DNA from: a virus
Reading direction: 5' to 3' (one strand)
IMG/VR virus record: IMGVR_UViG_3300045988_137040
Length of the DNA stretch: 64,000 nucleotides
The position numbers and the translations under genes are program-made. The notes under the pieces are model-generated. The model saw only the letters and a list, made by a program, of their open reading frames with translations, made no database searches and was not told the DNA's origin. The stretch's first letter is position 1. Each line of letters starts with the position of its first letter. Below, in pieces: positions 6,038 to 62,406 of this stretch.

Positions 6038-6877
6038 ATGGAACTTATAGAACCAGAGGTAGAGCTTCTGAGTGAGTTAGACATCACTCCAGAATCACAC
6101 ATAGCAAGATGCGCACGCGTCTGTTACGGTCGTGAATACAAAGAGCCTAATCAGGCAGCTGATAAGAAGCTGGTGGAAGGCCTTATCAATAGAGGACACC
6201 TGTCAATGCTTAGACATGCAAGTATGTATCTTAGTCACACAGAGGATATTTTCCGAATTGCAACGCACATTGCAAACTCCTGTTACTGGAACTATGACGT
6301 GCTCGGATATGCGTCTACAAATCTTCAAGAGTTTACGCAAAGTGGAGTTGACAAAGAACAAGTAGTTACACTTATTGGCAATAAGCAATTCTTAGAGGAC
6401 TGTGCAAAGCATCCAAGACTCTTTGAGCTTTACAGACTTACTTTCTGTATCACGACTCAGATAAGCACATCAAGAGAGCTGAACAGAGTGTCCCCTAACA
6501 ATATCGCAGAGCGTAGCACGCGCTTTTGCTCTGCGAAGGGAGGCTTGGCGATATGCAGGCCTTGGTGGATAAAAAGCCCAATAGAAGATGCTGTCAGTGT
6601 CCTATCGTATTATAATCTGGCATGTGAAGCAGAGAAGACCTACATGACCCTTCTTCTCAGAGGCATGAAACCAGAGAACGCAAGAGGTGTTCTTCCCTTA
6701 GACACTGCCACCAAGGTTATCTACACCTACTCCGTCCAAGAGTGGCAGCACATCTTGGACCTCAGGCTCTACGACAAGACCGGCAAAGCCCATCCCAACT
6801 GTCACGTGGTCATGCAGATGGTTAAAGACCAGATTAACAGCTTTGCCAATGAACATAACATAGATTATCAAGTGTAA
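6038..6877 (+). CDS. divergent ThyX-like (flavin-dependent thymidylate synthase family) protein
   Basis: ARVCYG, RGHLSMLRH (compare GHxSvlEH) and ARGVLPLDTATKVIYTYSVQEWQHILDLR fit ThyX. The RHRxxSxxxxSxRY signature reads RVSPNNIAERSTRF. Confidence 0.55.
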   Translation: MELIEPEVELLSELDITPESHIARCARVCYGREYKEPNQAADKKLVEGLINRGHLSMLRHASMYLSHTEDIFRIATHIANSCYWNYDVLGYASTNLQEFTQSGVDKEQVVTLIGNKQFLEDCAKHPRLFELYRLTFCITTQISTSRELNRVSPNNIAERSTRFCSAKGGLAICRPWWIKSPIEDAVSVLSYYNLACEAEKTYMTLLLRGMKPENARGVLPLDTATKVIYTYSVQEWQHILDLRLYDKTGKAHPNCHVVMQMVKDQINSFANEHNIDYQV

Positions 6878-11815: not shown

Positions 11816-12061
11816 ATGACACAATTTGAAGTAGAATTGAAGCAAAGCCAGCTTTTCCGCGCATACTGCGCACAGGCCGAACTATTGAGACAAGAACTTA
11901 TGAATAACGGCATCGAGCTTCAGGCGGCACGACAGACCGCCAATCACACCCACGAAGAACTGCTCGACCTCTTACACCATCGTGTCGAGATGGAGCGCAA
12001 GCTCCACGAGTTGAGGACCGAGCACATGGCGCGCCATGCACAACCACGACAAAAAAAATGA
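11816..12061 (+). CDS. hypothetical coiled-coil protein
   Basis: 81-aa ORF. Confidence 0.6.
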   Translation: MTQFEVELKQSQLFRAYCAQAELLRQELMNNGIELQAARQTANHTHEELLDLLHHRVEMERKLHELRTEHMARHAQPRQKK

Positions 12062-12519
12062 ACAAGGACAAGAAATACCGCAAGGGATTTATCAATCTTG
12101 AGTCGTGGATAATGGGTTGTCGCCACGAGATGCTTGCCGACAAGCCTACATATCCCGACCATTACAAAGAAGAACATCAAGAACAATCAAAACACAATAT
12201 CACTATGAAATTTACAAAAGTAATCGAAGGCTTACAGCAAGGCCATAACTACACACGTTCGTTGTGGAACGGCAAGAAGTTTATTACGCTCCAGATACCG
12301 GCAGACATTTCTCGCGACATTATACCGAAGATGACGAGTCTGAACGATGAAGCGAAAGAGTTGCTTCTTGACCACGGCGACGGAATGATACATTATCGCA
12401 ATCAAGTGTTGCAAGTGTCGCTCGACAATGACGACCGTCAGAATATCGCCACTTACTACATCCCTACTTGGGAGGATATATTTGCCGATGACTGGTTTTG
12501 GTCAGATACTAAAGAATAA
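12058..12519 (+). CDS. DUF2829 (Tad2-family-like) protein with a 49-aa N-terminal extension
   Basis: From M50 (nt 12205): MKFTKVIEGLQQGHNYTRSLWNGKKF...IPTWEDIFADDWFW fits the DUF2829 pattern (F..A...L..G....R..WNGK ... D..A.DW). ATGA overlap at 12058. Confidence 0.6.
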   Translation: MNKDKKYRKGFINLESWIMGCRHEMLADKPTYPDHYKEEHQEQSKHNITMKFTKVIEGLQQGHNYTRSLWNGKKFITLQIPADISRDIIPKMTSLNDEAKELLLDHGDGMIHYRNQVLQVSLDNDDRQNIATYYIPTWEDIFADDWFWSDTKE

Positions 12520-12549: not shown

Positions 12550-13164
12550 ATGAAAACAAAAAACATCATTATGGCATCCATACTGCTTGTGGTAGCCATC
12601 GTTATCGGCTCATTGGTAGCCACCTACTTCAGTTACAACAACCGCGAGATTGCGCTGCGCCAACAGGCAGAGGCACAGCGCGGAAAGATTGAGGGCGTTC
12701 ACGACAAGATGTGGAAAATCATTCAGCAGAAGGCGCAGGTTACGGACGAGTATAAGCAGACCTTCGAGAAGATTTATCCGCAGCTCATTGCCGGACGCTA
12801 TCAGAACGACCAGGGCACGATGATGAAGTGGATTAAGGAGAGCAACCCCAACTTTGATGTATCGCTCTACCGCGACCTTATGCAAGCCATCGAGATACAG
12901 CGCACCGAGTTTCAGACCTCGCAGGAACGTATGCTCGACATCATCCGTGAACACGAAACACTCACTCGCACCTACCCTGCCCGATGGTTTGTGTCTAACA
13001 CCATGCCTATCGAGTATAAGGTTATCTCTTCGTCGCGATCCAAGGAAGTGATGACGGAAGGCGAAGATAAAAGACCATCGCTATATGGATTGCCACATTT
13101 GGTATGGATTCGAGGAATTGTTCAAGGAGAATATGGAGAGGAAGAAGAATGGAGTGTAAACTGA
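12550..13164 (+). CDS. membrane-anchored LemA-like protein
   Basis: N-terminal TM helix ASILLVVAIVIGSLVATYF. SYNNREIAL...RTEFQTSQERMLDIIREHETLTRTYPARWF loosely fits the LemA pattern. Confidence 0.4.
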   Translation: MKTKNIIMASILLVVAIVIGSLVATYFSYNNREIALRQQAEAQRGKIEGVHDKMWKIIQQKAQVTDEYKQTFEKIYPQLIAGRYQNDQGTMMKWIKESNPNFDVSLYRDLMQAIEIQRTEFQTSQERMLDIIREHETLTRTYPARWFVSNTMPIEYKVISSSRSKEVMTEGEDKRPSLYGLPHLVWIRGIVQGEYGEEEEWSVN

Positions 13165-13337
13165 CCCACGTCGCACCCTCCTTCCGTCTAAATGGGGGGG
13201 GTAGCGGACAAATGGTGAATGTTACTGACGGATGTTGTGCGGCAACCATAACCACACGCTACGAGGCTATCGGACCTATCAACATCCTCACGCTCGCCCA
13301 TTTCCCAAGGACAGGAGTAATCGTAGAATATGTTTAA
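13149..13337 (+). CDS. mini-ORF A of a tandem array (62 aa; alternative start 13212, 41 aa)
   Basis: MECKLTHVAPSFRLNGGGSGQMVNVTDGCCAATITTRYEAIG...GVIVEYV*. It contains a G8 tract (13194-13201). Its stop overlaps the ATG of ORF B. Confidence 0.4.
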   Translation: MECKLTHVAPSFRLNGGGSGQMVNVTDGCCAATITTRYEAIGPINILTLAHFPRTGVIVEYV

Positions 13338-13485
13338 CAAGAATGCTCGCCCCATTATCCTTGGCTCCTACAGTCCCTCGCAGAACGGCATCATCGTGTC
13401 GCCACACGGCATAGCCCTGTGTATTGCCGGGGGAGGTAAGGGTCACGACGTGGATAAACCGAAAATATTGATAGAGTATGATTAA
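13330..13485 (+). CDS. mini-ORF B of the tandem array (51 aa)
   Basis: MFNKNARPIILGSYSPSQNGIIVSPHGIALCIAGGGKGHDVDKPKILIEYD*. Both junctions are ATG/stop overlaps. Confidence 0.45.
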   Translation: MFNKNARPIILGSYSPSQNGIIVSPHGIALCIAGGGKGHDVDKPKILIEYD

Positions 13486-13627
13486 ACAAATCCCTTTCGT
13501 ACAACGCACATCACAGCTCTGCCCACGTCGGGGGTACTCCACCGCACTGTCCGCACGCTACGACGGATGGGCAGGACTCTACGACGAGCACGGACAGCAC
13601 ACCATTGTATTGATAGAATATGACTGA
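13478..13627 (+). CDS. mini-ORF C of the tandem array (49 aa)
   Basis: MIKQIPFVQRTSQLCPRRGYSTALSARYDGWAGLYDEHGQHTIVLIEYD*. Overlapping junctions on both sides. Confidence 0.45.
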   Translation: MIKQIPFVQRTSQLCPRRGYSTALSARYDGWAGLYDEHGQHTIVLIEYD

Positions 13628-13799
13628 TAAGTATTACATCGGCTGGGTACGCAGTGGCAAGGACGGCAAGGGCCTCGTAAAGTACCGACCGCGCAAGCGG
13701 ATAGCCAATGCCGTGACCTCAATGTTCGGGTGGGGTGTTACAGACCCTCGTGACGGACTGGGAAACACCACGCCGCATATAGTATATGAATTTGAATAA
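13620..13799 (+). CDS. mini-ORF D of the tandem array (59 aa)
   Basis: MTDKYYIGWVRSGKDGKGLVKYRPRKRIANAVTSMFGWGVTDPRDGLGNTTPHIVYEFE*. Confidence 0.45.
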   Translation: MTDKYYIGWVRSGKDGKGLVKYRPRKRIANAVTSMFGWGVTDPRDGLGNTTPHIVYEFE

Positions 13800-13819: not shown

Positions 13820-14221
13820 ATGGAAAAAGACAAAAACGTAGAGATAGGCCGTGCTCTCGCCAAATTCGATACGGCCTGTCGCGATTTGGTCAACCTTGTC
13901 AACGACCAGCTCTTCGAGACCTCCCGCTCACCCTACTGGGTAGCCGACGAGGTAGGAGGCATCTGCGACTTCGGCGATACCGACTTCCTCACGCCCGAAG
14001 AAATGGTGCTCATTCTCAAACACGGCGTCAGCTACGACGACTATGTAGAGTGGCGCGAAGCCAACATCAAGCATGGCGACACCAAAGGCCGCATCAAACT
14101 CAAGTCATGGCTCCGCGGATGCCGACACGACCAGTCGCCCGGCTTGCTGGCAATGCCCACTACGCCCACAATGCCCATTAGGCCTAACATAAACTCAACA
14201 AAGAAATTAAAAAAAGAATAG
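13820..14221 (+). CDS. hypothetical protein
   Basis: 133 aa. The C-terminal KGRIKLKSWLRGCRHD resembles the N-terminal extension of the 12058 ORF. Confidence 0.7.
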   Translation: MEKDKNVEIGRALAKFDTACRDLVNLVNDQLFETSRSPYWVADEVGGICDFGDTDFLTPEEMVLILKHGVSYDDYVEWREANIKHGDTKGRIKLKSWLRGCRHDQSPGLLAMPTTPTMPIRPNINSTKKLKKE

Positions 14222-21663: not shown

Positions 21664-22413
21664 TCACAACTCTTGCGCAATCCGCTGTTGCGCTATCTCA
21701 AAGTATTTTTTGTCGGTCTCAAAACCGATGAAGTGTCTGTGTTCACGCATGGCGGCAATGGCGGTGGTGCCACTGCCCATGCAGTTGTCAAGTATTACCC
21801 CCCCCAATTCACTGTAGGTACGAATGAGGTATCGCACCAGGTCAACGGGCTTCTGCGTGGGGTGCAGTCGGTTGGTGTCTCGGTTGAACTTTATCACGTC
21901 GAGGGGATAACGCTCGGCCTTATAGTGTGTCATCACTGGCTCACGCATGTGCGTAATGTCATAGCTTGTGGTGGGCGTACCCTGCTTTGCCGAGTACGCC
22001 TTTCCTGGTCGCATCTGAGGATGGTAGTTCATGGCGTTGCTTTTATCACGCACGAAGGCCGCTGCCGACTTGCTAAAGACAAGGATGTTCTCATGAACCT
22101 TCAGTGGAGCGAAATGGCTGTTGAGAAAGCCGGTGGCATTTTCTTTCTGCCATATCCATTCATATTTGAAGAGCCGTGGGTTGCTGGCCACAAGGATGGC
22201 CGAGAACGGCATCTGCGAGAACAGCACGATGGCACCACGGTCTTTGACGATCCGCTCGTATTCTTTCCACAGAGGTTGCAAGGGTACCACGCTGTCCCAT
22301 GCGTTGCGGGTGGTACCGTAGGGCAGGTCACAGATGATGGCGTCGATGCTTTGGTCGGGAATGTCTCTCATTCCGAGCAGGCAGTCGGTGTTGTAAATGC
22401 GGTCTAAATCCAT
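21664..22413 (-). CDS. beta-class N6-adenine/N4-cytosine DNA methyltransferase
   Basis: The N-terminal IICDLPYG (DPPY-type motif IV) precedes the C-terminal DNCMGSGTTAIAA (FxGxG motif I). An internal G8 tract lies at 21798-21805. Confidence 0.8.
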   Translation of the reverse strand: MDLDRIYNTDCLLGMRDIPDQSIDAIICDLPYGTTRNAWDSVVPLQPLWKEYERIVKDRGAIVLFSQMPFSAILVASNPRLFKYEWIWQKENATGFLNSHFAPLKVHENILVFSKSAAAFVRDKSNAMNYHPQMRPGKAYSAKQGTPTTSYDITHMREPVMTHYKAERYPLDVIKFNRDTNRLHPTQKPVDLVRYLIRTYSELGGVILDNCMGSGTTAIAAMREHRHFIGFETDKKYFEIAQQRIAQEL

Positions 22414-57347: not shown

Positions 57348-57448
57348 ATTGATAGTATATAATTGTTTTATGGGCTAAAGATAATACAGACGTGACAAGT
57401 AGGCAAGGGCAAGGGCAAGAGTTCTCATTATTAAAAATGTTTAATATT

Positions 57449-57590
57449 ATGCGGTTTTGCGGTCGCACGGTTGTGCGGTTGCAGAATTTTCAATAACTTT
57501 GCATCGCTACAACAAAACAAGACCGTTCGATTTTGTGGTTACACAGTCGCACAACCGCATAATTGCAGTAACTTGCGGTCGCACATCTGC
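57449..57590. repeat. TGCGGTT-type motif array upstream of parA (candidate centromere/operator)
   Basis: At least 7 units, for example TGCGGTTTTGCGGTCGCACGGTTGTGCGGTTGCA ... GCACAACCGCA ... TGCGGTCGCAC. Confidence 0.6.
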
Positions 57591-57621
57591 GCATATTCAT
57601 ATTTTATATAAAGCTACATTT

Positions 57622-58488
57622 ATGAGTAAGGTAAAATCTACACATCTCCGGCACATAGTTGCCGTGAGCAACAACAAGGGTGGGGCAGGGAAGACCACCA
57701 CGGTATTGAACCTCGCTGCGGCAATCGCGCGCAAAGGCTACCACGTGCTTGTCATCGACACTGACCCTCAATGCAACCTCTCGCTCTCTGTAGGATGGGA
57801 CACGACAAGAGAGGGCACGCGAACCAAACCTGGCGAGCCGACTATCTTCAATGCGATATGCCTCGGACAGAACATCCCCGTCTATCGCAATGAGACAGGG
57901 TTGTACTATACGCCGTCATCTCCGCGCATGGAAGACGCCGACATCCACTTGAACAGCTCTGAGGTGACAGACCCTGTGCGTGTGTTGAAGATGCTCTTCG
58001 CTGAACCTATAGACGACCACACGGGCGAGGGCTTGAAAGAGTGGGAAAGCAGCTTCGACTTCATCTTCATCGACACACAGCCTGCCATGAGCCGAGTCAC
58101 GGTCAACGTGATATGCGCGGCCACGGGTATCATCATACCAGTTGAACTGGAGCCGTTGGCCGTTGACGGCTATGTCAAGACCATCGGTAAAATCATGAAG
58201 ATTAAAAAGGTGAGCAATCCATCCCTGCAAATCCACGGTATCCTGCTCACCAAGAAAGACCGACGACTGGTAAGCGCACGGAGTTTCGAGGAACAACTGC
58301 GTGAGGAGGGAGACGTTTTCGAGACGACCATCAGCCGCACCAACGATGTGCCCAACTCGCAAGACCGGGACTACGACGAACGGCCCGGTATCTGTCACGA
58401 CATCTTCAGCTACCAAAAAGGCAGAGGACGTGCCAAGGAAGATTTCACCAACCTTGCCGAAGAGTATATCAAGAAGTGGGGAAAGTAA
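57622..58488 (+). CDS. parA: ParA-family partition ATPase
   Basis: Deviant Walker A VSNNKGGAGKTTT, then VIDTDPQ. The ATG at 57622 is chosen (the track ORF starts at 57457 inside the repeat array). Confidence 0.85.
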   Translation: MSKVKSTHLRHIVAVSNNKGGAGKTTTVLNLAAAIARKGYHVLVIDTDPQCNLSLSVGWDTTREGTRTKPGEPTIFNAICLGQNIPVYRNETGLYYTPSSPRMEDADIHLNSSEVTDPVRVLKMLFAEPIDDHTGEGLKEWESSFDFIFIDTQPAMSRVTVNVICAATGIIIPVELEPLAVDGYVKTIGKIMKIKKVSNPSLQIHGILLTKKDRRLVSARSFEEQLREEGDVFETTISRTNDVPNSQDRDYDERPGICHDIFSYQKGRGRAKEDFTNLAEEYIKKWGK

Positions 58489-58645
58489 CACAACCGCACG
58501 ACCATGCAACTGCATAACTGCAATAATATGCAACCACTTAACTACATAACCGCATAGTTGAGCAGTTGGGCAGTTACTAAAACACACGTATGTGCAACTA
58601 TGTGGTTGCATAGTTGTGTGGTCGCACAGATAAGCAACCGCAAAA
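58489..58645. repeat. TGCGGTT-type motif array downstream of parA
   Basis: CACAACCGCACGACCATGCAAC ... ATAACCGCATAGTTG ... TGTGGTTGCATAGTTGTGTGGTCGCACAGATAAGCAACCGCA. Confidence 0.6.
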
Positions 58646-58655
58646 AACATAAGAT

Positions 58656-59030
58656 ATGAACAAGAAAGAAAAACCGCAGCGCAGATCGCTAAACGCAAGA
58701 ATAGACGCAGAGTTGGCAAGCGCAGAAAACATACCGTTGGCAGGAATGACCAGAGAGCCAGCAAAACCAGTGAAAACTCCATCGCAGAGCTCAACTTTGG
58801 GGCGGGGTGGGGGAGAGCCTATAGCAACCAAGAAGGCAACGACCATCATGCCCAAGGATGTGTTCGTGGCCCTGCAACGCTATTGCATCAACAAGGACAC
58901 GCCCAAGCACCGTGCGCTCTATTTCTTCATCCTTGACGGACTGCATGCCGCTGGGGAAATCAATGATGCCGACTATCAACGCTTCCGCGATATGGCCGAG
59001 CAGATAACTACGACATACGAAAAGAAGTAA
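58656..59030 (+). CDS. small DNA-binding protein, candidate centromere-binding partner of ParA (RHH-like)
   Basis: 124 aa, placed directly after parA. It has a basic disordered N-terminus followed by TTIMPKDVFVALQRYCI. Confidence 0.45.
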   Translation: MNKKEKPQRRSLNARIDAELASAENIPLAGMTREPAKPVKTPSQSSTLGRGGGEPIATKKATTIMPKDVFVALQRYCINKDTPKHRALYFFILDGLHAAGEINDADYQRFRDMAEQITTTYEKK

Positions 59031-59043
59031 ACAATCAAGACAA

Positions 59044-59478
59044 ATGAAACAAGAAAAATTATTTACTATTCTCATGCTCCTCTTCCTGAGCATGATGGCC
59101 ATCAGCTTCGCCGCGTGCAGCAGCAGCGACGACGAAGAGGACGACGGATCGCAACGTTACAAGAATCAAATCATCGGAACATGGTATTGCGACCGCGTTT
59201 CGTATGTGTTCGAGTCGGACGGCACCGGATGGTCTAACAGCGACAGCTGGGACGTTATTGCCCACTTCAAGTACACCATCGAGGGGCAAGGCGTGCAGAT
59301 GCATCAGTTCACCTACGTTAACACCACCACTGGCAGTCTTTGGTACGGCGAGGACCAATCCGCTTCCTACAATCCTGAGCAGAACACCATGCGCATCGAA
59401 GGACGTGTCTTCACGCGTCAGAAGCCGACACACAAACCGCCCACAGAGGAGCCGGTGGACACCGTGGTGACGGAGTAG
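59044..59478 (+). CDS. lipoprotein
   Basis: Signal plus lipobox LFLSMMAISFAAC, followed by an acidic linker SSSDDEEDD. Confidence 0.7.
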   Translation: MKQEKLFTILMLLFLSMMAISFAACSSSDDEEDDGSQRYKNQIIGTWYCDRVSYVFESDGTGWSNSDSWDVIAHFKYTIEGQGVQMHQFTYVNTTTGSLWYGEDQSASYNPEQNTMRIEGRVFTRQKPTHKPPTEEPVDTVVTE

Positions 59479-59513
59479 GGTAGGGCGTCCATCATCACAC
59501 CCGACACTTCAAC

Positions 59514-59544
59514 GGCAAGGAGCGTGGCTCCTTGCCTTTTTTTG
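59514..59544 (+). terminator. intrinsic terminator
   Basis: GGCAAGGAGC-GTG-GCTCCTTGCC followed by TTTTTTT. Confidence 0.8.
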
Positions 59545-59800
59545 TTTGGCACTCACATCTATAGCCGACACTTCCGTTTTTGTCGGGATTTTCAACTTGC
59601 TAAATACTTCTAACTCAAAGGTTTACAAATTTAGCTATTTCTAATTATTCTTTGAAGTTACTAATTTGTCGGTAAAGCTATAAATCTGTCATCAAAGTTG
59701 TGTTTTTCCGACCGACCTAATTATTAGGCAGTTACGGCTATATATTTGGATTATACTATATCGACCACTCTATATATCAACAACTTATGGACTTTGCCAA

Positions 59801-60192
59801 ATTGAGGACAGATTAACAGCTAAAAGAAAAAATCAAAAATACTCGATTCTTATTATATAATTATTGGTATAGATAGTATATAGTATATAAGGCTTTGTAA
59901 CTTATTGATAATCAAATAATAGCAAGGTGAATTGAGGACAGATTAATAGCTTTTTGAGGACAGATTAATAGGTTTCGGGGGACAGATTAATAGCTTTTTG
60001 AGGACGGATTAATAGGTATTATCTATGAATTGAGGACAAATTAATAGCTTTGGAAACTCCGACAAATAGGTAACTCCATATTATTGAGGACAATTTTATA
60101 GCTTTATCAATTATTTAAGGAGTGCTAAAATTCAAAACTATCTGAAAATAAACACGTAAAGCCTTGTGTAATTGAGGACAAATTTATAACTT
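59801..60192. repeat. iteron array (8 copies of about 20 bp, ATTGAGGACAGATTAATAGCT) = plasmid-type origin
   Basis: Copies begin near 59801, 59931, 59954, 59977, 59998, 60028, 60083 and 60171. The array is directly upstream of rep. Confidence 0.85.
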
Positions 60193-60194
60193 TG
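60163..60194 (+). promoter_or_regulatory. rep promoter overlapping the last iteron
   Basis: CTTG-N20-TAACTTTG. The spacer and -7 box lie inside iteron 8. Confidence 0.5.
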
Positions 60195-60257
60195 CCAACA
60201 AATGGTAAAAGACATGGCTACAACTGTCCGAGCTACCACACATTAAAAGCTACAAAC

Positions 60258-61469
60258 ATGGCAAGAAAATCACGAAAGGCTGAGCAGCTCAAGCAAGAGT
60301 TGTTGAGCACAGTGCAGCAGCAGGAGCTGATTACTCAGCCTGTTACCTTCGCTTACATCAAAGGTGAGATGTCAGTGATGCAGGCACGTATTCAGACAAT
60401 CATCATGGAGAAGCTGCAACTGCGCATCGCAAAGTTCTTAAAGGAGAGGGCGCATGATGGCTTTGCTGGATGCTTATTCTCCGATGAAGATTTCGCCCCG
60501 CTCAAGGGGGAAAATGACAAGAGCAGGTATCTCACGTTCAGTGTGAAATACTCAGAGCTCGGCATACCGTCGGCAAATTACCGCTACGTCTCGGACGCTG
60601 CGAGAGCCATGCAGGGCTCTTTGGTATATGAAAAAAGCATTGTTGACGACGGAAAGACTTATAAGCGATATATCGTTGCTTTTCCCGTAGTCGATGTCCC
60701 GGACGAGAGCCTTGGAGAGCGACGCACTGACATCAAGCTCCACATGACAGAGAGCACTGCAAAATATCTCTTCCGTATTACGCCCTATCACCGATACCTT
60801 AAAGACGCGGTGTTTCTATTCAACAGCGGATATACGGGCAGGATATATCTGCTTATCAATGCCAATAAGCAGTTGGGTACATGGAATATTGACTACGACG
60901 AGCTGCGCAAGATACTCCTTACCACCTATGACAAAGAAAATGATAAATATGTCTGTGACAAATACCCTGATATTAGGGATTTCAAGCGCCGTGTCCTCGA
61001 ACCGGCCCGCAAGGAAATCATGGAGGTCGCAAAACGTATTGACTGCACTTTCGACTACGAAATAAAAAAGAAGCGTGGCTCGAATGAGAACATCAAGATA
61101 GTTTTCCATATCCACCTCACAGACCTCGGAAAGAACATCAAGCAGGGGCAGCTGGAAAGCCAGGAGGCCGTGACGCTGCGCAATGCGCTGATGAACCTGC
61201 ATATCACCATCACCGACGCAAACAGGTTGATGAAGCAAGTCTCCGCCGAGCAATATCCAGCTCTAACCAACAAGGCAAGAGAACTGATGAAATACTACCA
61301 AGACGTCAGAGAGGGGAGGGCAAAGGGAGTCTCAATCAAGGACTACCGAGCCCATGCCGTTAAGTCCCTTCAAAACATTATCTTAGGAAAAGGCAACTTC
61401 TTCAGCGAAGCCGTCGAGATAAATGACAAGCCTATTTCAGAACCCCAAAAATCATTAAACGAATGGTAA
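60258..61469 (+). CDS. rep: iteron-type plasmid replication initiator (Rep)
   Basis: 403 aa from the ATG at 60258. Its position behind the iterons supports the call. The family (Rep_3/RepB-like) is inferred from context more than from motifs. Confidence 0.65.
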   Translation: MARKSRKAEQLKQELLSTVQQQELITQPVTFAYIKGEMSVMQARIQTIIMEKLQLRIAKFLKERAHDGFAGCLFSDEDFAPLKGENDKSRYLTFSVKYSELGIPSANYRYVSDAARAMQGSLVYEKSIVDDGKTYKRYIVAFPVVDVPDESLGERRTDIKLHMTESTAKYLFRITPYHRYLKDAVFLFNSGYTGRIYLLINANKQLGTWNIDYDELRKILLTTYDKENDKYVCDKYPDIRDFKRRVLEPARKEIMEVAKRIDCTFDYEIKKKRGSNENIKIVFHIHLTDLGKNIKQGQLESQEAVTLRNALMNLHITITDANRLMKQVSAEQYPALTNKARELMKYYQDVREGRAKGVSIKDYRAHAVKSLQNIILGKGNFFSEAVEINDKPISEPQKSLNEW

Positions 61470-62341
61470 GAACAACGAAACCCAATTATACCGCCCTCTG
61501 GCAGCAGTGCCTTAACTATATCCGTGACCGTTACCCTAAGGGCGAGAAGTACGACCACTGGTTCAACGTCTGGTACGGCGACGTGAAGTTTGAGAGCTAT
61601 GATGCCGACAAACGTCAGTTGCGTATCAACGTGCCGTCGAAGTATGTGTACGAGTACCTCGAGACGCACCAACTGGAAACGCTCAATGAGGCTCTGCGGG
61701 CCACTTTTAAGGAACAGGTGGTGCTGTCCTACCATATAGCTCCGCAAGAGCCGTCATTCGCTGATATGGCTGCTTACCTGCAACGGCAGTCGGGTGGGGT
61801 AGGACAGGGTAAAATCCATATCCATATCGACAACGCAAGAGAACGGTTGGAAGATGGTTTGAAATACTATCTGAAGGATAAACCTGTCACATGGCTACCG
61901 GGTTATGAGCATATCGTCCGATGGTTGACCGACAACGACAACCGGGGACTGTTGTGTTTCGGCTATTCGGGGGTGGGAAAAACATTGATATGTCAAAAGA
62001 TTCTTCCGATACTGATAGGCCGGCCCGTTGTCAGTGTCAGGGCAACAGACCTGCACGACCGTCTCGAAGAGCTGAAGCGTGAGCGCATCGTCGTCATCGA
62101 CGACCTCGGCAAGGAGCCACGCAAACACTATGGCGACACCGACCAGAGTTTCTACGAGTTGTGCGACAATGCCGAGCATACTGGCAACATCCTTATCATC
62201 ACCACGAACCTCTCCACCAATACCGTTGACGACCCACACTATCCCGACAGCATAAAGAACCGCTATGGTGAAGAAGTTTTTACCCGGCTGAAGGCCATCA
62301 CTCACACCGCACGTATTGAAGCCGAGAGCCTGCGCGAGTGA
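61463..62341 (+). CDS. AAA+ ATPase with a DnaA-N-like N-terminus (DnaC/IstB-like helicase loader candidate)
   Basis: Walker A GYSGVGKTL and Walker B RIVVIDDLG. 7-nt overlap with rep. Confidence 0.65.
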   Translation: MVRTTKPNYTALWQQCLNYIRDRYPKGEKYDHWFNVWYGDVKFESYDADKRQLRINVPSKYVYEYLETHQLETLNEALRATFKEQVVLSYHIAPQEPSFADMAAYLQRQSGGVGQGKIHIHIDNARERLEDGLKYYLKDKPVTWLPGYEHIVRWLTDNDNRGLLCFGYSGVGKTLICQKILPILIGRPVVSVRATDLHDRLEELKRERIVVIDDLGKEPRKHYGDTDQSFYELCDNAEHTGNILIITTNLSTNTVDDPHYPDSIKNRYGEEVFTRLKAITHTARIEAESLRE

Positions 62342-62344
62342 TAT

Positions 62345-62406
62345 GGGCGCCGCTTCGCAGCTTGAAATTAAACGTAAAATTATCCGTAAAATTAAACTTA
62401 AAATTA
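62345..62406. repeat. solo arm of the long palindromic repeat family
   Basis: GGGCGCCGCTTCGCAGCTTGAAATTAAACGTAAAATTATCCGTAAAATTAAACTTAAAATTA matches one arm of copies 1-3. No partner arm is present. Confidence 0.8.

Follow-up and report, generated by a model that had tools for sequence, protein, structure and literature searches.

What are four consecutive, overlapping mini-genes of about 50 codons each doing in a phage genome? They lie on one strand of a 64,000-nucleotide stretch of the IMG/VR virus record IMGVR_UViG_3300045988_137040 (the window), and a first-pass annotation, made from the letters alone, had compared these open reading frames (ORFs; here o1 to o4) with the serial target-recognition domains (TRDs) of multispecific phage C5-cytosine methyltransferases (MTases), present as free mini-proteins. 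We found that their orthologues form arrays of separate ORFs next to a C5-MTase core that has no TRD of its own, that every unit family tested evolves under purifying selection in its own frame, and that the core gene has been deleted from the window. We consider it fairly probable, from these comparisons, that the units, orphaned in the window, serve a multispecific phage C5-MTase as TRD specificity subunits, each of them translated separately.

Conserved arrays of overlapping mini-ORFs

The ORF listing bore out the architecture first described: four tandem units, the first of 62 or, from an internal Met, 41 amino acids (aa), the others of 51, 49 and 59 aa, each with a hydrophobic end of the EY type (VIVEYV, ILIEYD, VLIEYD and IVYEFE, directly before the stop codons). 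The start of o1 was placed at the conserved MECKL, the longest ATG-initiated ORF running from 13104. The three junctions (GAATATGTTTAA, GAGTATGATTAA and GAATATGACTGA) are indeed exact overlaps with the next ATG inside the last codons of the preceding unit; each is an 8-nt stop/start overlap of the form ATGnnTRA, which puts the following ORF in the +1 frame.

We fetched related loci around homologues of a 133-aa gene that lies downstream of o4, and walked from the core through ORFs with an ATG near the previous stop. Up to 15 ORFs were chained downstream and up to 11 upstream of the core, some of them not TRD-like, and clustering sorted the TRD-like ORFs into some 30 recurrent families with lengths of 42-63 aa and a further one of ~105 aa. 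Orthologues of the four units were found in arrays adjoining the core in at least 80 related phage contigs, the families F11 (o1), F0 (o2), F3 (o3) and F5 (o4) being present in 18, 46, 34 and 28 loci, respectively. A locus holds a median of 8 TRD-like units and up to 15, and never two of one family. Their order is semi-conserved, with F11 or F6 first and then F7, F0, F2, F1, F3, F8 and F5; the o1 family is the first unit after the core in relatives and the o4 family usually the last of the downstream array.

Units occur on both sides of the core, either after its C-terminus (motif VIII plus tail) or before its N-terminus (before motif IX), and since they abut the core ends they occupy the position between motifs VIII and IX or its permuted equivalent. 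This architecture is kept with cores that are only 67% identical (L104 and L106), and a unit is not bound to one position: L104 carries an o4-like unit on the upstream side of its core, and L003 has an o3 unit on the far side of the 133-aa gene. Neither in the window nor in at least 60 relatives do the units form a single multispecific polypeptide; they occupy separate ORFs whose frames differ.

The ratio of non-synonymous to synonymous substitutions (dN/dS) was 0.07-0.23 in frame in all 16 families tested, compared with about 1-4 in the other two frames; for the families of o1 to o4 it was 0.18, 0.07, 0.16 and 0.20. At most junctions the start of a unit overlaps the stop before it. The 8-nt overlap (Y-[DE]-stop, with the ATG inside TATGA) accounts for 143 of the 373 distinct junctions, followed by the 4-nt ATGA overlap (44), the 11-nt overlap from core to first unit (21), and overlaps of 19 nt (21) and 14 nt (11), while the remaining junctions are short gaps. 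The 25 nt around the unit ATGs are 65-80% A+T, against ~50% within units. Bacteroidota initiate translation independently of Shine-Dalgarno sequences, and this context fits such initiation.

The first-pass annotation had named a frameshifted pseudogene as the alternative if relatives carried one intact MTase gene at this place. Relatives do carry an intact MTase gene, yet their units are separate and under purifying selection: breaks are not sporadic, dN/dS is not near 1, and unit boundaries are conserved down to 67% core identity. Conserved boundaries and overlaps together with in-frame purifying selection rule out a frameshifted pseudogene. With its orthologues, frame-specific selection and recurring 8-nt overlap, the four-unit pattern is far beyond chance.

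The partner core and the origin of the units

L002 and L003 carry o2, o3 and o4 at 88-98% aa identity, and in L002 eight overlapping units follow a 439-aa core. This protein begins ~15 residues before motif IX (RKLTPKECFRLMG), continues with motif X (AGNSIVV) and a linker that retains the canonical C-terminus QLTLF, and then runs through motifs I (TFSGYDSQ), IV (SPCQDIS), VI (ENVAAL) and VIII (QNRDRVF), a post-VIII segment of the usual type (~40 residues, RYFLKDDAVSKFLKAND) and an ~80-aa helical tail ending in FKENMERKK.. before the stop. Its PDB match to M.MpeI (4dkj) pairs core residues 188-350 with 112-277, and core residues 15-49 with 333-367. This alignment confirms what the motif order shows: the core is circularly permuted, with IX-X ahead of I-VIII. 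Retention of QLTLF before motif I fits a permutation by tandem duplication, in which case the arrays on either side would stem from the TRD regions of both gene copies. The core has no TRD, and TRD-like sequence was seen in the flanking mini-ORFs only.

The intact system occurs in many contigs of related phages that are associated with Prevotella. Searches for the core returned 146 IMG/VR stretches and, at E <=1e-10, over 7,800 proteins, some of which are named by their sources as Prevotella or Caudoviricetes C5-MTases. Among the 120 matches listed nearly all are 435-439 aa long, and PCQ, ENV, QNRDR, FSGYD, RKLTPKE and AGNSI are each kept in 115-119. One protein that represents a 781-member cluster (P0009) has PFQ in place of the catalytic PCQ, which is kept in 115 of these 120.

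Sister families from the same arrays connect the units to full-length enzymes. When ten of them were concatenated, the search returned 324 proteins at E <=1e-3, with PF00145 in almost all of the 120 matches listed, and sister families match PF00145 enzymes at E down to 1e-26. The matches include canonical-order enzymes of 630-740 aa (P0131, P0137, P0144 and P0133), in which some seven TRDs stand in tandem between motifs VIII and IX and each closes with hhhE(P); the families matched in such single-chain multi-TRD enzymes are F1, F18, F2/F13, F4, F26, F10 and F16/F22. As to the window families, hhalign aligned that of o2 with 'IGQMSSSQNSRVIDPEGISYAVTNGHKDGEPKII' (P0238 residues 7-40, probability 68%, E 4.6e-5; also P0136) and that of o4 with 'IGYTRDKKGKVVSRHLQDYVNTVHTSTGSGGNTDCFIL' (P0138 residues 380-417, probability 58%, E 1e-4; also P0139). 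For o1 and o3 the likeness consists of the short motifs TITTRY and ALSARY, which we take to recall ARYYKG-type TRDs such as that of E. coli Dcm. An exhaustive HMMER search of 1.84 billion representative proteins with o3 returned 29 homologues, 27 of them 35-119 aa long, some only 49-65% identical and none inside a complete MTase. The o3 family thus persists as ~50-aa proteins down to 49% identity.

The resemblance to MTase TRD segments first proposed for all four units therefore appears to hold for o2 and o4, whose families match internal TRDs, and came down to short motifs for o1 and o3. The assignment as TRDs appears direct for the former pair; for the latter it would be contextual, drawn from genomic context and short motifs, because profile searches were negative. 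IANAVTS in o4, which had been listed in an MTase-like segment, is wrong as a degenerate motif X and aligns with VNTVHTS inside a TRD of single-chain enzymes.

Natural fusions link unit and core directly. The four window units, concatenated and compared with 5.8 billion proteins, returned eight proteins, one of which (P0006) is a PF00145 C5-MTase fragment that ends in frame with an o4-like unit (...IIIEYD before the stop). The same in-frame fusion occurs in P0005 and in P0083 (491 aa, nine member sequences), where the o4-like unit is joined to the core C-terminus. Relatives have the units as separate ORFs, with fusion of an o4-like unit in these three proteins. The initial idea of serial TRDs as free mini-proteins gains support from the TRD-less core, the sister-family matches and the fusion P0083.

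About half of the matches are of another kind, namely multi-TRD proteins with motifs IX-X and without motifs I-VIII (P0129, P0176, P0179, P0238 and about 50 others, from gut metagenomes). Just before P0129 (L110 2865-5254) comes an ORF of 390 aa with PF00145, the two sharing 37 nt, and this arrangement is either an M.AquI-like alpha/beta pair with multiple TRDs or a frameshifted single gene.

Loss of the core and condensation of the array

A tblastn search with a related core and a canonical enzyme found no C5-MTase catalytic region in the window, which extends to all 64 kb the earlier remark that catalytic motifs are not present nearby. The match of the L002 core to the window is limited to its last ~15 residues (13109-13153). 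The core is also not in positions 23.4-56.6 kb of the source contig (ENA ERZ27229761 k119_213702, 101,875 bp), and neither the window nor the 10 kb upstream holds another PF00145 gene. Homology to a 183-aa membrane-protein gene like that of L004 stops at 13067, and homology to the core tail, as present in L048, sets in at 13069 (Table 1). The ORF that spans this breakpoint combines ~174 native residues of a predicted membrane-anchored protein with ~31 out-of-frame residues read through the core remnant, and its stop overlaps the o1 start by 16 nt; a LemA-like identity considered for this ORF was not supported by Pfam. The unit o1 begins where first units usually begin, just after the last 29 core codons. 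The core gene has therefore been deleted in the window, leaving its last ~29 codons, and the four units are orphaned here.

Table 1. Coordinates in the window of the mini-ORFs and of the features that surround them
Feature	Positions	Strand	Description	Basis
o1	13149-13337	+	62 aa, family F11	sequence and ORF listing
o2	13330-13485	+	51 aa, family F0	sequence and ORF listing
o3	13478-13627	+	49 aa, family F3	sequence and ORF listing
o4	13620-13799	+	59 aa, family F5	sequence and ORF listing
G8 homopolymer	13194-13201	+	inside o1	
Core remnant	13069-13159	+	last ~29 codons of the permuted C5-MTase core gene, 3' end	blastn/tblastn to core 3' ends of L048, L039 and L049
24-aa ORF in core remnant	13085-13159	+	MDCHIWYGFEELFKENMERKKNGV, then stop	
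Deletion/recombination breakpoint	13067-13069			comparison of the window with L004 and L048
Chimeric ORF	12550-13164	+	204 aa; no significant Pfam match	
133-aa gene	13820-14221	+	no Pfam match; repeatedly borders or interrupts TRD arrays in relatives	

The array of the window is itself a condensed, in-frame-deleted remnant. The first unit is an in-frame chimera in which an F11 unit has received its C-terminal end (AHFPRTGVIVEY) from an F9-type unit, with the crossover at CTCGCCCA, and the first seven codons of o2 (MFNKNAR) come from a deleted F14 unit joined to the F0 body at a shared CTCGC. Compared with relatives, whole units are gone between o2 and o3 and between o3 and o4. Frames and junctions were preserved through all these deletions, and the differences between window units and their nearest orthologues are mostly synonymous (6:0, 9:2 and 4:1). 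At least 10 contigs, drawn from several samples, share the core-less arrangement, and on these contigs gene callers recorded only o1 and sometimes o2.

No terminator-like site was found between 11.5 and 14.5 kb of the window and the genes around the array are all co-oriented, which makes a single transcript plausible. Translation of the units, coupled to that of the upstream 204-aa ORF, probably continues, but they are probably inactive unless a co-resident relative or the remaining ~28 kb of the contig provides a core.

The G8 tract reported earlier in the first unit is present, and its length varies among relatives: 10 distinct sequences have G5, two have G8 and one has G10. In the G10 case (L039 5352-5361) a frameshift cuts the ORF to 23 aa. 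The variable run may act as an on/off site prone to slippage, or it may reflect an assembly error in a homopolymer. A prematurely terminated core accompanies intact TRD units in ~8% of core-bearing loci (L028, L050, L058, L063, L064 and L088), and such cores were either inactivated recently, as in the window, or misassembled. A consistent two-gene architecture for interrupted cores was considered and rejected, the stops and frameshifts being sporadic.

The 133-aa gene immediately follows the array in the window and in L002, lies between the o4 and o3 units in L003 (4001-4360), and directly precedes the upstream array in L104 (3433-3741). It may or may not be an accessory factor of the system; it could also be just a stable neighbour. 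Its segment 'FLTPEEMVLILKHGV' resembled motif IX, but the protein has no MTase match in Pfam and was dropped as a candidate MTase piece.

Proposed free specificity subunits and competing explanations

How would such a system work? We propose that termination-reinitiation on one polycistronic mRNA would yield each unit as a small protein of its own, which would dock non-covalently on the core, with the C-terminal hydrophobic strand hhhEY[DE], which sits where a canonical TRD leads into motif IX, as the candidate docking element. Each unit would confer a different target on the core, and phage DNA would in this way be protected from many host restriction enzymes at once. In the window, recombination at 13067/13069 removed the core except for its last ~29 codons, and in-frame deletions mediated by junctions or microhomology condensed the array to four units. 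The broader proposal is that C5-MTases can use free, interchangeable specificity subunits: a TRD-less permuted core would recruit any of up to ~15 mini-proteins (45-63 aa) as a combinatorial, re-assortable shield, and orphan arrays could be complemented in trans by the core of a co-resident relative. To this we give an even chance. The TRDs of Bacillus-phage multispecific enzymes act as independent modules. Non-covalent assembly is made plausible by the two-polypeptide C5-MTases M.AquI and M.EcoHK31I and by the mutual complementation of fragments of M.BspRI, M.BsuRI, M.HhaI and M.SssI (PMC3404938).

Several observations weigh against free TRD subunits. The four units had no match in Pfam and PHROGs profile searches, and PDB searches with single o2 and with the o2 and o3 family profiles gave chance matches only. 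A phrog_9689 match to o1 (E 0.008) was taken as chance. Neither o1 nor o3 has a statistically supported match to a TRD inside a full-length MTase. Two AlphaFold2 runs on the fusion P0083 gave a mean predicted local distance difference test score (pLDDT) of 44.5 and 59.2 with only residues 120-320, the catalytic part, confident, so the models make no statement on TRD docking, and the binding of a free TRD to the core is something that we infer. The start-codon rule is partly built in, as chain detection demanded an ATG. Finally, no core is present in the window, the scan of the source contig covered all but ~28 kb, and the intact ORFs of the core-less lineage (at least 10 contigs) could mean either a core-independent role or a recent deletion.

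Could the units instead be joined during translation? If ribosomes shifted frame or bypassed the junctions, one long polypeptide of core and multiple TRDs would result and the separate ORFs would be only apparent. The conserved junction TATGAnTRA, the +1 frame in which most overlaps (8, 11 and 14 nt) place the next unit, and the existence of single-chain multi-TRD enzymes and of a natural core-unit fusion would all suit such recoding. However, overlaps of 8, 4, 19, 1 and 13 nt would call for different shifts, gaps of 1-44 nt make up about a third of the junctions, in-frame stops stand 1-2 codons before many unit ATGs (for example TGA TAG AAT ATG), and a slippery P-site codon able to re-pair is absent. 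Moreover, units upstream of the core or beyond another gene cannot join its C-terminus, and every unit keeps an ATG in an A+T-rich context; we hold recoding to be unlikely. Reassignment of stop codons was ruled out because the next unit is always in another frame, and the 'EYDW...' proteins P0001 and P0004 read like out-of-frame read-through. A reservoir of silent cassettes, in which only the core-adjacent unit is used and others are moved in by junction recombination as in hsdS shufflons, seems quite improbable to us. The repeated junction sequences, the unit-precise deletions and chimeras that distinguish the arrays of relatives, and the semi-conserved unit order speak for it, but silent copies would need no ATG, intact ORF or stop/start overlap of their own, and yet all families show frame-specific dN/dS of 0.07-0.23. 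In addition, every unit has the direct orientation, the loci read contain neither inverted repeats nor a recombinase nearby, the first position is held by two families only (F11 or F6), and even the first unit is not fused to the core. Separate proteins are favoured over both alternatives by the heterogeneous overlaps and gaps with stops just upstream of ATGs, by units on both core sides and beyond an intervening gene that are each under purifying selection, and by the non-redundant families within a locus together with the persistence of the o3 family at ~50 aa.

A different question is whether the four units of the window still have a function. They may be leftovers awaiting decay after core loss, which is compatible with free subunits in the intact system and which we regard as a substantial possibility, though not the probable one. 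The deletion of the core, the lack of another PF00145 gene in the window or 10 kb upstream, and decay products in other relatives (P0008, P0271 and L039) point in this direction; yet the four ORFs are all intact, even the two that underwent in-frame deletions, their differences from the nearest orthologues are mostly synonymous, the core-less arrangement recurs across contigs and samples, and part of the contig lies outside the scan. The persistence of orphan arrays with intact ORFs and the anti-defence genes nearby, including a Tad2-like gene, would also suit mini-proteins that act alone by binding specific DNA sequences or the restriction or methylation enzymes of the host, for instance as decoys or occluders. 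Such a core-independent role is very improbable in our view, as nearly all other loci keep units and core in tight linkage and no homology supports it; from the structures of M.HhaI and M.HaeIII, we know of no 45-60-aa TRD fragment that folds or binds DNA alone.

Free TRD subunits would set these arrays apart from the systems that they resemble. The multispecific C5-MTases of the Bacillus phages SPR, phi3T, rho11s and H2, reportedly described in the work of Trautner and Noyer-Weidner, share with them and with the single-chain enzymes P0131, P0137 and P0144 one catalytic framework for several independent TRD modules, which are ~40-60 aa long and end in a hydrophobic strand plus Glu; the presumed protection of phage DNA from several restriction systems is common to them as well, and the single-chain enzymes contain counterparts of F1, F2/F13, F4, F10, F18, F26 and of the o2 and o4 types. 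In all these enzymes, however, the TRDs are covalently placed between VIII and IX, whereas here each TRD is its own ORF and the core has none; the modules number up to 15 here, while the Bacillus-phage enzymes are said to have 3-5.

M.AquI and M.EcoHK31I, too, are put together from ORFs that overlap and are translated separately, the split falling within or close to the variable region (PMC3404938), and they show that non-covalent assembly is tolerated by C5-MTases; the M.AquI beta subunit resembles the multi-TRD proteins with IX-X such as P0129. Unlike these enzymes, which divide the catalytic motifs between two subunits of one fixed specificity, the system described here keeps motifs I, IV, VI, VIII, IX and X within the single 439-aa core, and the specificity module alone is detached and multiplied. 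Natural circularly permuted C5-MTases (M.BssHII, M.Alw26I, M2.Eco31I, M.Esp3I and M2.BsaI; PMC5944983) have IX-X before I-VIII with the permutation point in the variable region, as in our core, but they keep a TRD within the polypeptide (mostly Type H, with an N-terminal TRD), and the ~80-aa helical tail of the core is novel by comparison. HsdS of Type I restriction-modification systems, whose gene is translationally coupled to the methylase gene (PMC3510504), is similar by analogy only, as a separate exchangeable specificity component with recombination among modules; its fold and chemistry (N6-adenine) are unrelated, and a ~400-aa scaffold carries two TRDs and is used one S subunit at a time. 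In full-text searches of the literature we met with no account of free TRD subunits or of a phage system like this one. The concatenated units had no tblastn match in 50,697 phage genomes, and no sequenced GenBank phage was found to have them; the only long match, MT837876, shares the upstream membrane-protein gene without the array.

Other genes of the window place the array in its genomic setting. A 153-aa protein at 12058-12519 (+) has a Tad2-like Thoeris anti-defence domain (PF11195, E 8e-10), which puts the array in an apparent anti-defence neighbourhood. The phage keeps at least one other methylase, an N6/N4 DNA methyltransferase at 21664-22410 (-) (PF01555, E 8e-32) that adjoins a PDDEXK_3 gene. 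Rep3_C-like, DnaA_N-like and ParA-like genes beside a very large tail gene (about 57,400-62,400) suggest a phage-plasmid lifestyle, and the gene table of the source contig lists Thy1 (ThyX-type thymidylate synthase, PF02511) in the early region at 6038-6877 (+).

To our knowledge, the TRD shares a polypeptide with catalytic motifs in all characterised C5-MTases. If our reading is true, a free TRD of ~50 residues would be the smallest known DNA-specificity subunit of a methyltransferase, and the modular-TRD picture of Bacillus phages would extend to a non-covalent form, which would also offer a compact plug-in scaffold for programmable cytosine methylation. Dozens of conserved ~50-aa gene families have been missed by standard annotation. 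The window copy is more modest, a core-less remnant of doubtful activity, yet it reveals a widespread architecture that, if free subunits are indeed at work, would explain how abundant gut Prevotella phages escape many restriction systems at once.

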